NCBI GenBank assembly: GCA_034440375.1
Contig: JAWXBZ010000023.1
Span: 1-30,837 of the forward strand
Reading direction: 5' to 3'
DNA from: Candidatus Eiseniibacteriota bacterium
GTDB lineage: Bacteria; Eisenbacteria; RBG-16-71-46; JABDJR01; JAWXBZ01
DNA: 30,837 nucleotides
This document shows, in pieces, positions 15,001 through 18,000 of this stretch. Position numbers: made by a program. Positions within the stretch are counted from its first letter, which is position 1; each line of letters starts with the position of its first letter.

Positions 15001-18000
15001 CAGGATCCGATCCGACGGGCCGCCACCATCAGCCGCTTTACGGCCATCGACTCGACTCTCGACGGGCGCGGGATGGTCGAGCCGCTGCTCGACATGCGTG
15101 TTGGCGGCGATCCCTTCCGCTCCCTGAATCAGGCCTACTTCGAGATGCAGATGGCCTGTCCCTTCCTCATCGACGAATCGTGTTCCATCCACCCCGAGCG
15201 CCCGGTGGCCTGTCGCGAGTACAGTGTCACGTCGGATCGGCGTCTCTGCGATAACCCCTTTGCCGCCGGGATCGACAAGGTGCCGATGCCGCTGCCGCTC
15301 TCGGCCAGCCTGTCCTGGCTGACCTCCGAGCTGCTCGGCGAACCGCCTATCCTGGTTCCGCTGCCGCTGGCGCCACGTTTCGCGGCGGAGCATGAGGAGT
15401 GGCGCGAACAGCGCTGGCCTGGCCTCGAAATATTTCAGCATTTCATGCGGATCGCAGGCGGGCCACCACCCGACTGGGCCATGAACACGCCGAACGACCC
15501 GCCGCCCGCCGGCATCTCGCCGGTGGCCTCCGCCCCGCCCGCCCCGCCATCCGAAGCCTGACTCGCCCTAGCGCAGCGGCAGCTGAACTTCGAACTCGAG
15601 CGGCTTTTCCTGGATCTTGAACGTCGGCGTGATCTTGACCGCGGCCGCCACGCGCCCGTCGGGCAGCTGGATTGGCGTGGCCAGTACATGCGTACCCGGG
15701 GCATCGCCGACGAAGGGTGACAGCTCGGCGAACAGCTGGTGCTCGAGCCATCGACAGACCTCGGTCGGGTCCCCGGCCGGCAGGCGCCCGGACAAATCCA
15801 GCAGCCGGTGCGATACCTGTCCGGCATAGAGCTGGTAGGTCAGTGCCTGGTCCAGCGTCACGCTTCCGGGGGCGTGGCGGTAAGTGGTGGCGAGGAATGG
15901 GAAATAGGCGATATCGCCGTTCTGTTGCCCAACCAGCGGCGTGAAGCCGGCCCGGCAAAGATCCCACGCCTTTTCGTCCGGCAGGATGACCTCCGTCGGC
16001 ACCACAACCCTGGTCATTGGCCCCTGCTGCAGTTCACGGGTCGGCAGATCGCGGTGCCCGCCGGTGCCGGACAGGCCGTCGGCCGCAGCGCAATGGCCGT
16101 GCTGGGAATAGCTGGCGGCCAGGCTCACGCCGAGTGCCCAGATGGGGCTTCCCCACGCCAGCCACTCGGGATGGGCCGGATCGACGGTTTCATTGTAGAA
16201 GGCGTCGGATCCTCCGCCACCGTAGGGCGCGCGGAGGAGGAACCGGTTGACCGAAAGGCTTACCCAGCGCGCGGCGTTCTCGCGCTGAAAGAGATTCCAG
16301 CCGGCCCACGGGCCGCCAAACGTCTTGGTAGCCAGGTCGGGAAGCGACGGCAGGTGCGCCAGGTTCTTGAGGCCGAACATGGCCGGGCCGACCGAGGCCG
16401 CTACCGGCGTCTGGATCGCCGCGGCAAGTTCGCCGAGGAGATGAAGCCGCTCGATGGAGGCCATCTGATGATCAAATTCCTGGTCGATCAGCAGGGCCGA
16501 GGCGGCCACATCCGATGTCCCCTCGTAATCCGGATCAAAGATCTGGGCACGATAGCGATCCGCCCACTCCTCGCCGATTCCCGTGACCAGGGCATCCAGT
16601 TGCAGCGGCACCAGCCGGCCAATGCCGGCCTCGCCCCGTTTGGCCAGGTAGGCGAGCCCCAACCATGCGGATTCGAGCTTCGCGAAATCCGGATGATGAA
16701 CGATGGCATCGAGCAACGGCGTGCAGAGCGCTCGATCATCCGGCGACCCCTTGAGGGCGCCTCCCGCCGTGAGCTGTGGCGCCGCCTGGGCCCAGATCTC
16801 CTTCGGTTCGAAATCCCGCCGCTTCCGGAATTCCAGCGAGAGCGGGGCGCCGGCAATCTTGATCGACAGGCTCGGGGCCACCCGCTCGACGGCGCCGTCC
16901 AGATCGTCCGCCGCGACACGCATCGGCCCCCCGGGACGTGCGGGGTTATGCCCGGCCAGTGGCGCCACGACGACCAGTCGCAGCGGCGTCCAGGATAGTT
17001 CGTCGCCGGACGGACTCTTGGTTTCGTCATTCATGGCTGAAGGACTCCTTCCCATCGAGATAATCGGACAGCCGGGCATCCGGGCGCGTCACCCGGCGCG
17101 CCATGGCCGGTGACAGCTGCTCGCGGGTGAACCCGGGATACGTTCGCTTCAGGACGCTCAGTGATTCCAGTTCGACATCGGGGTCGATCAGCGCCGCCCA
17201 CTGCGGACCCGAAGGCTGGCTGAAGAAGACCAGCACTTCGGCCGCCGGTCCTTCGCTGCCGGCCCGCCAGAAGATGGCGCCCGATTCCAGCGGCCGTCCC
17301 AGCTCGCGATTCAGCATGTCCAGCCAGAAGGCGGCGGCCGGGGTGGTCGTGACGGACGGCGTGGTGGTCGCTCCCGCCCCTTCCGCTCGATTCGCAACAG
17401 CAACCGGCAGTGGCATGGCGAGTCCGTAGCGGGTACCGGAAGGATCGCGGCCACGAAGCGGCGCCGTCGACTCCTCGAGATTCGACAGCACCACTCGCCC
17501 GCGCGCGGCGTCGGTTCCCCCGAAAACAGCGCCCCAAAAATCCTCGGCGCGCGTGGATTGCAGCCAGCGATTCAAGGCGGCCTCGCTCACTTGCTCGTCG
17601 GGCGACGGCGGGGCAGGCTCCCGGCGTACGGCTTCCAGGGCCCCGGCCGGCGTGCCGGCCTCGCGGCACGTCTGGAGCAGCCGTTCCATGATCGGTGTCA
17701 GATCATCCAGCGCGAGAAGCGTGGCGCCGGTCAATGGCCCGAGCGACTCGCACCAGGCCAGGATCGTGAAGGGATGACGGCGGCCGGCGCCATCCTCACC
17801 GGCCACCATGAGACCGTGGAGCCATTTGTGCGAGCGACCGCAATTCCAGAGGAAGCGCCAGGCCGGAAATTCCGCCACCAATCGATCGGCGCGGGGGCCG
17901 AAGCGGGCCTTGGCCAGCCCAAGCCCCTCCCCGACCCAGCGATCAAATCCCGACTCCGACAGGCGACGCGGATCGTCAACCAGGAATTCGCGGCTGACCG

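Follow-up and report, generated by a model that had tools for sequence, protein, structure and literature searches.

The T6SS (type VI secretion system) of a Candidatus Eiseniibacteriota bacterium encodes, in addition to a canonical split tssB and tssC, a second sheath protein of 488 aa in which a TssB core and a TssC body are joined in one chain, and which lacks the N-terminal arm and nearly all of domain 3. Instead of serving as a building block of the sheath, this armless paralog probably acts as its cap or brake. Our favoured reading, held tentatively, is that it forms a minor, non-contractile end ring on the sheath of its own T6SS, where it docks by its C-terminal arm and stops or steadies the sheath. 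The family to which it belongs, referred to here as class S, is real, conserved and under-described, and it is a variation on a known theme.

The window, that is, the whole stretch of 30,837 nucleotides that was analysed, is contig C23 of a genome designated G000. The paralog gene is the last of a minus-strand run composed of a tssJ-like gene, tssK, tssL, tssM and tagF, and it faces hcp (Table 1). An earlier note on this DNA had placed the gene after tagF and described it as a single-chain paralog beside split tssB and tssC. Both statements were upheld, the first by the overlap of its start with the tagF stop and the second by profile alignments and by the genes on contig C183, where the canonical tssA-B-C-E-F-G are located. 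ClpV was found on C19 and a tssA start on C104. The Pfam search of G000 gave one VipA match and two VipB matches, and the sole ImpA_N match was tssA. A scan for promoters found none. A second assembly carries the same 14.8 kb at 99.99% identity, with 100% identity for the paralog protein, and pattern scans returned two loci among named genomes and two among metagenomes. In the loci that were read, S was never directly joined to tssBC and formed a separate transcription unit. It follows tagF in G000 and L081, and tagF plus a further trimmed paralog in G006. In many relatives it is the closing gene of an operon that also encodes CsgG/TPR lipoproteins, a barrel-like protein and a large protein with Ig repeats; in several genomes it stands alone, and some S genes adjoin PAAR-like and DUF2169 genes.

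Table 1. Features of the window, with the parts of the fused paralog given by residue
Feature	Coordinates	Strand	Basis or remark
Single-chain TssB-TssC paralog of class S (488 aa), armless and domain-3-less	15568..17034	-	Uninterrupted frame, ATG at 17034, stop at 15568
TssB core, residues 15-88 (own TssB 29-114)	16771..16992	-	Profile comparison
12-residue linker, residues 89-100, replacing TssB 115-165 and TssC 1-76	16735..16770	-	
TssC domain 2 body, residues 101-386	15877..16734	-	
Inner gp25/TssE-like domain 1, residues 387-470	15625..15876	-	Family-specific motifs, diverged tube-side helix
C-terminal arm, residues 471-488	15571..15624	-	Retained
Shine-Dalgarno-like GAAGGAG, 10 nt upstream of the paralog ATG	17045..17051	-	Sequence inspection
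tagF	17027..18043	-	Start putative; stop overlaps paralog start
tssM	18054..21446	-	TIGR03348
tssL	21449..22168	-	
tssK	22165..23535	-	
tssJ-like	23546..24019	-	Weak Pfam match, E 0.06; clusters with same-position genes of relatives
Fha C-terminal-like protein	24016..24915	-	Below Pfam cut-off
hcp (tube)	14216..14722	+	Convergent with the paralog's operon
vgrG	4136..6436	-	True start probably further downstream
Ser/Thr kinase	6361..8358	+	Within T6SS locus
Large Ig-repeat protein	8911..12702	-	Homologues precede fused paralog genes in several relatives

The Pfam search matched the paralog itself to VipB only (107-378, E 7e-40), as had been reported, and VipA was also matched in 14 of 16 close relatives. 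Profile comparison recovered both halves of the chain in G000 as well. The TssB core aligned to the genome's own TssB with an hhalign probability of 94.5% (E 7.5e-8), and residues 101-481 aligned to the own TssC 77-487 (E 1.8e-40) at approximately 24% identity. The TIGR03355 equivalog cut-off was missed, with 135.5 bits against 271.5.

Two parts of the sheath protomer were lost. The chain starts at TssB strand 2, so the N-terminal handshake arm is missing: TssB 1-28 is absent, and the arm ERINIVY of the own TssB (residues 11-17) has no counterpart. The TssB N-terminus is reported to hold the strand that is handed from a protomer to its neighbour (PMC5807055). In all 63 aligned S sequences only 2-19 residues, mostly about 4, precede the strand-2 Pro, compared with 30 in TssB, and the short starts were supported by ribosome sites in the loci inspected. 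The second loss covers approximately 125 residues of the TssB C-terminus and TssC N-terminus (domain 3), including the ClpV-type LLEELI helix at TssC 24-29; domain 3 is described as the ClpV target (PMC4239648, PMC5807055). The spacer between the two halves measured 7-48 residues in 59 of the 63 S sequences and 76-84 in the other four, compared with about 150 in TssB plus TssC. The protein is not a full sheath subunit of the kind found in phages and extracellular contractile injection systems (eCIS), with whose sheaths the earlier note had compared it.

The C-terminal arm was retained, aligning to TssC 476-487, with P470 conserved in 90% and K477 in 85% of the 63 S sequences. Two residues studied in VipB of V. 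cholerae had opposite fates. K223, which is required for assembly and whose K223A mutation is reported to abolish it (PMC5797969), is replaced by G245 in the paralog; the corresponding position carries K/R in all 16 cognate TssCs and in 1 of the 63 S sequences. D333, reported as required for contraction (PMC5797969), is kept as D353, and the position is acidic in 60 of the 63. Across the same alignment, 8 columns were invariant and 26 near-invariant. The family has invariant motifs of its own, unlike those of TssC, and the residues counted as invariant and specific to S are H189, Q250, H314, P379, R386, G390, T393 and K477. Relative site rates of the domain 1 acceptor strands were 1.47 and 1.36 in S and 1.63 and 1.72 in TssC; a relaxed acceptor face, suggested by raw identities, was not borne out by these rates. 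The tube-side helix of domain 1 was somewhat relaxed (1.66 in S, 1.31 in TssC), and the C-terminal arm was slightly less constrained (1.15 and 0.85, respectively).

A monomer model predicted from a 63-sequence alignment reached a pLDDT of 94.2 and a pTM of 0.93, superseding a weak model from 16 sequences (pLDDT 64). In this model, the TssB strands that complete the domain 2 sheet are residues 18-24, 55-60, and 63-68. TssC chains were the top structural matches (Z 28-32; 5n8n_B, Z 32.4, rmsd 4.3, 373 aligned), spanning model residues ~90-477. Single-chain sheaths of phages, pyocins and eCIS ranked next, with Z up to 23.3 (8kee_C, rmsd 4.0, 314 aligned), and reached back to residue 15, in agreement with the earlier note. 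Structural identity was 16-27% to TssC chains and 6-12% to phage and eCIS sheaths, indicating T6SS ancestry. A phage or eCIS relic was ruled out by the fold ranking together with the neighbours tssJKLM, tagF, hcp and vgrG; the paralog is T6SS-derived and is not a phage or eCIS-type sheath. The domain 1 fold also matched TssE (6gj1_D, Z 7.0, rmsd 2.7, 86 aligned), and no TssE homology was found by profile comparison (E 0.31). In the monomer model, the C-terminal arm is seemingly folded back on its own domain 1, with TssE and crystals of pre-assembled sheath both aligning as far as residues 486-488; the folded-back arm may also describe a closed monomer. Since the entire chain maps to the sheath fold, it has no TagA-like membrane anchor.

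A search over 1.84 billion representatives returned many fused VipA-VipB proteins. For the trees, which were midpoint-rooted, the S profile served as the template for aligning the VipB cores, and this may bias the result towards a grouping of S; FastTree was run on 252 of 313 cores after duplicates and gappy rows were dropped, and IQ-TREE on 64 sampled cores. Four groups were resolved. Class S (~410-540 aa) includes the G000 paralog and had a FastTree support of 1.0 for 77 sequences; with IQ-TREE, 17 of the 18 sampled S sequences grouped at UFBoot 100, and the value was 71 once the last member was included. Class L consists of long fused paralogs of ~560-650 aa with the domain 3 region. Many L proteins keep a longer N-terminus, and those of this phylum are short there too. 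Class T keeps the N-terminal strand and stops ahead of domain 1. The fourth group comprises near-canonical fusions dispersed among ordinary TssCs. S was nested among L, and S plus L were separate from canonical TssC and T (UFBoot 95-98), which means that S is old and descends from a fused paralog. This placement ruled out an origin by recent joining of the tssB and tssC on C183. Two proteins, P0059 and P0069, hold an S-like and an L-like module in a single chain. Plasmid searches gave no close S relative among the matches listed, the best having ~34% identity or less and most being canonical tssBC, so that no cultured host emerged; myxobacteria would be the likeliest, and the M. xanthus TssC is close to the present one. 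The earlier note had treated the fused paralogs as one kind, which pooled three classes that are split by T6SS subtype.

The distribution was surveyed in 153 genomes of the phylum that were at least 85% complete, 121 of them high-quality. Sheath, TssK and ImpA_N matches coincided in the same 43 genomes, of which 38 were among the high-quality ones, and S was present in 30 of the 43, with 28 intact frames and two split by frameshift (G069 and G063). The recurrence of fused paralogs across the phylum was therefore borne out, and the earlier counts, 33 T6SS genomes among the 121 and 20 paralogs, were too low. The S scores themselves are circular, most of the sequences having been in the query alignment; independent of that, the other 13 T6SS genomes scored at most 232 bits, as canonical TssC or L do. 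No S match was found in the 110 genomes without a T6SS, and canonical TssC was present in all 30 S genomes. L accompanied S in at least 13 of the 30, usually directly upstream.

The presence of S was divided by T6SS subtype. Of the 31 T6SS genomes lacking TagJ, 30 had S; of the 12 with TagJ, none had S and six had T. The single genome lacking both S and TagJ, G123, has an L protein. This split tracks essentially two T6SS lineages and so represents about one evolutionary event, not 42. TssA was ~520 aa in S systems, with ImpA_N and VasJ domains (Pfam on two genomes), and ~350-400 aa in TagJ systems. Since each of the 43 T6SS genomes had a single ImpA_N match, no TagA was found in any of them.

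These deletions can be read against what is reported of canonical sheaths. Both arms of a protomer extend to the ring that lies closer to the baseplate (PMC5813253, PMC5924787), and the length of the N-terminal linker is critical, its lengthening being reported to stop contraction; linker mutants co-assemble with the wild type and block firing, poisoning it in a dose-dependent manner (PMC5797969). With only the C-terminal arm present, S can dock but should not relay contraction, a deficiency that the last ring or a brake could bear and that ill suits the first ring. It is through TagA that long-TssA systems are described as normally stopping and holding the sheath, and the accounts available leave their TagA-independent stabiliser open (PMC6745524, PMC7896307). 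On these grounds, a terminal ring is tentatively favoured.

In such an arrangement, S would be made in small amounts and would use its C-terminal arm alone to dock on the last TssBC ring, at the handshake domain, because the arms point toward the baseplate. Lacking the N-terminal arm and the K223 equivalent, it would neither relay contraction nor support fast extension, and would thereby stop and steady the extended sheath, which is the job of TagA in other long-TssA systems. ClpV could not grip S directly, and S would be released when the TssBC rings beneath it were dismantled. In genomes that have it, L may form another layer of this kind, with domain 3 kept. The end ring is consistent with the occurrence of S in nearly every T6SS of the long-TssA, TagA-less, TagJ-less subtype. 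In addition, the roseobacter protein TssCL links a T module, which is related to S, to a canonical TssB and thereby locates modules of this type at the sheath. Several observations count against it. The acceptor strands of S evolve no faster than those of TssC, so that a further ring might still attach to S. The arm by which S would dock is seemingly folded back in the monomer model, and the S/TagJ split counts as about one event. S has no membrane anchor, unlike TagA, and H2 sheaths of P. aeruginosa are reported to be stable without TagA (PMC7896307, PMC6745524). Across genomes, S also follows TssB and TssC only loosely: by Spearman correlations of inter-genome distances, which vary with the genome subset and do not amount to a test, S reached 0.44-0.61 with TssB/TssC, compared with 0.76-0.89 for TssC with TssB, TssE and TssF.

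A rather doubtful alternative is that S acts as a regulatory brake, a natural dominant-negative subunit that co-assembles anywhere or occupies handshake sites and so restrains firing. The dose-dependent poisoning of wild-type sheaths by linker mutants (PMC5797969) is what such a subunit would be expected to do, S lies in a transcription unit apart from that of tssBC in the loci read (after tagF in G000, G006 and L081, and solitary in several genomes), and the locus includes a Ser/Thr kinase. However, with its apparent translational coupling to the tssKLM-tagF operon in G000, S would be produced each time the machine is, S contains no regulatory domain, and the hairpin over its ribosome site was no stronger than chance (z -0.13).

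It is unlikely that S, with L, works outside the TssBC lattice, either as an adaptor that binds TssA, TssK, ClpV or an envelope module or as a short, non-recycled tube. Such a role would suit the invariant motifs that differ from those of TssC, the joined S-like and L-like modules of P0059 and P0069, and the position of L and S at the end of the CsgG/TPR lipoprotein, barrel-like and Ig-repeat operon in many relatives, although this operon is missing beside S in several genomes. On the full genome set, S distances tracked TssK, ClpV and TssA at 0.73-0.76 and TssBC at 0.44-0.45, but without the G000/G006/L081 subclade the TssA signal dropped to the TssC level (0.53 and 0.54, respectively). The absence of S from all 110 genomes without a T6SS and the retention of the C-terminal arm and the D333 equivalent also argue against it.

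A baseplate-proximal initiator ring resembling Pvc4 is distinctly unlikely. There, S would dock on TssE by its C-terminal arm, accept the first TssBC ring and damp premature firing. eCIS are reported to have a dedicated first sheath protein (PMC12546770), and the kept acceptor hairpin and diverged tube-side helix are as expected for a ring facing the spike end. S also excludes TagJ, which is described as a baseplate-side stabiliser (PMC7896307, PMC6745524), and PAAR-like and DUF2169 genes adjoin some S genes. But a first ring should receive the trigger through the N-terminal arm, which S lacks, and the first ring of V. cholerae is reported to touch the wedge through domain 3 (PMC5813253), which S lacks as well. 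The TssE of G000 looks ordinary (137 aa), and the distance correlation of S with TssE was weak (0.36-0.39).

A decaying, functionless duplicate of tssBC is very improbable: the low identity to the cognate TssC and the split frames in G069 and G063 would fit decay, but only two of the 30 frames, which come from several families, are not intact, the 63 sequences share the invariant and near-invariant columns given above, the clade is old and separate from the local TssC, and the tssG of G069 is also frameshifted, which suggests assembly errors. Considering these 28 intact frames in 30 genomes, the earlier reading that the protein might be inactive is unlikely.

Several known systems resemble S in part. 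Canonical TssB/TssC (VipA/VipB, HsiB1/C1; PDB 3J9G, 5N8N, 5URW) share with it the domain 1 and 2 fold, the TssB core strands, the C-terminal arm and the D333 equivalent, whereas S is one chain that lacks the N-terminal arm, domain 3 and the ClpV-type helix, has lost the K223 equivalent, and is encoded apart from and in addition to tssBC. The roseobacter TssCL is likewise a divergent extra copy in which TssB and TssC are fused, in genomes that keep tssB and tssC intact (Suria et al. 2022, PMC9515649). The Leisingera TssCL that we examined is a 1694-codon frame in which a long acidic linker separates a canonical TssB from a T module that ends before domain 1. It lies in a TagJ-bearing system and fell within class T (support 0.999 and 100) rather than S. 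TssCL is characterised by two VipA domains and one VipB domain in ~1,700 aa, compared with one partial VipA in the 488 aa of S, and belongs to a different clade. Fused DUF770+DUF877 proteins, such as a 622-aa protein of HdN1, are natural single-chain TssB-TssC proteins like S and were cited as evolutionary support only in the text available (Lossi et al. 2013, PMC3597794); judged by its published length, the HdN1 protein would fit the long class L from which S derives. These two precedents were found in the literature, and the tssB-tssC fusion of Hylemonella mentioned in the earlier note was not found in the texts covered.

Other likenesses concern function or architecture. The group 5 TssC40 of Agrobacterium is, like S, an extra, non-redundant sheath paralog in one T6SS; both TssCs are reported to be needed, and TssC40 is described as a TssC homologue without the TssB part that S has (PMC3702570, PMC5813230). 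G040 has this type of second TssC and no S. The Pvc2/3/4 sheaths of eCIS and the R-pyocin sheath are also single chains (PMC12546770, PMC5807055). According to these accounts, the former share with S the use of several paralogs per machine and the latter a two-domain, non-recycled architecture, but both keep the two handshake arms, and S, at 6-12% identity, is of T6SS descent. TagA/TsmA and TagB/TagJ, as described (PMC7896307, PMC6745524), possibly do the same job as S without homology: TagA/TsmA have ImpA_N, a membrane anchor and VasL, whereas S is a sheath fold with neither ImpA_N (Pfam) nor a membrane anchor. In the main texts covered, which included few subscription papers, we found no account of S or of an armless, domain-3-less paralog. 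The present analysis adds the defined deletions, the S, L and T classes with their division among T6SS subtypes, and the position of TssCL in the tree; the fusion and the second fused copy were already published.

Extended beyond this phylum, a broader view is conceivable, though somewhat doubtful: in many uncultured lineages, T6SS sheaths would be layered rather than TssBC homopolymers, with single-chain end subunits. S and T would have evolved separately with opposite truncations, S keeping only the C-terminal arm in long-TssA systems and T only the N-terminal strand, without domain 1, in TagJ systems, and the TagA-independent stop of long-TssA machines, so far missing, would be S.

The sheath of the T6SS is regarded as a 1:1 polymer of TssB and TssC. 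S is a conserved natural subunit that is missing just those elements that freeze sheaths when altered experimentally, and in this phylum it accompanies long-TssA, TagA-less systems almost without exception. With S, the questions of what brings sheath growth to an end and what limits contraction can be tested directly. Like eCIS, the T6SS may use several sheath paralogs, which the annotation "tssC" hides.

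Class T, the fused TssB-TssC paralog whose chain stops before the inner TssC domain (domain 1), possessed an N-terminal strand and was found in 6 of the 12 genomes with TagJ systems, and its genes often adjoined vgrG. In TssCL, the second fused copy of roseobacters (locus L102), a canonical TssB was followed by approximately 950 mostly acidic linker residues and then by a class T module, and the annotated start of this record left out the TssB part. A second plain TssC was observed in genome G040 after tssBC and before tagJ, which is an Agrobacterium-like arrangement.

Sheath paralogs and neighboring features in the window and the compared loci
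Feature	Location	Strand	Remark
Class T paralog	L088:3732-5363		
Class T paralog	L091:7376-8944		
Class T paralog	L094:1894-3402		
Class T paralog	L095:5939-7543		
Class T paralog	L070:6088-7680		
Class T paralog	L071:12230-13828		
Class T paralog	L096:8312-10171		
Roseobacter TssCL	L102:25210-30294		directly before vgrG
Second plain TssC (G040)	L073:14924-16450		
Trimmed paralog (G006)	L053:11811-12917		
Envelope module	window 8911-14033		
CxxCxxCC protein	window 14707-15561	+	directly after hcp
~800-aa protein with Cys pairs	window 24912-27320	-	

The T6SS of the genome under study was distributed over at least four contigs, whose ends did not overlap; on contig C19 (L115), clpV was faced by DUF2169, DUF3540, and PAAR-like genes. 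The Cys-pair protein of the window, which had no match in Pfam or NCBIfam, was located ahead of the Fha-like and tssJ genes in four loci of the initial comparison, and the same order recurred in two others. The CxxCxxCC protein after hcp was also present in G006 and L081. A recurring envelope module adjoined the T6SS loci L038, L043, L046, L049, L063, L065, L068, L071, L091, and L095. It comprised a pair of CsgG/TPR lipoproteins, of which one had a peptidoglycan-binding domain, together with a large Ig/fn3-repeat protein and a barrel-like protein that matched nothing in Pfam.

Frameshifts were encountered at loci L042, L049, L050, and L105. They affected tssC and clpV in G036, tssG and both paralogs in G069, and the gene of class S (the armless fused paralog lacking domain 3) in G063. 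Those of G036 and G069 look like assembly errors.

Further sheath forms were observed. G006 carried, between tagF and the S gene, a 368-aa armless paralog trimmed further than S, with no counterpart in the genome under study. In P0044, P0059, and P0069, a single chain consisted of two complete fused sheath modules, the short one followed by the longer. P0057, P0065, P0088, P0092, P0095, P0105, P0139, P0141, P0142, P0164, and P0165 were near-canonical TssB-TssC fusions of 650-1,720 aa with the TssB N-terminal handshake strand, joined to TIR, Ser/Thr kinase, TPR, WD40, ImpA_N, or FGE-sulfatase domains and dispersed in the tree of VipB cores. In these proteins, the sheath protomer could have been put to a signaling use.
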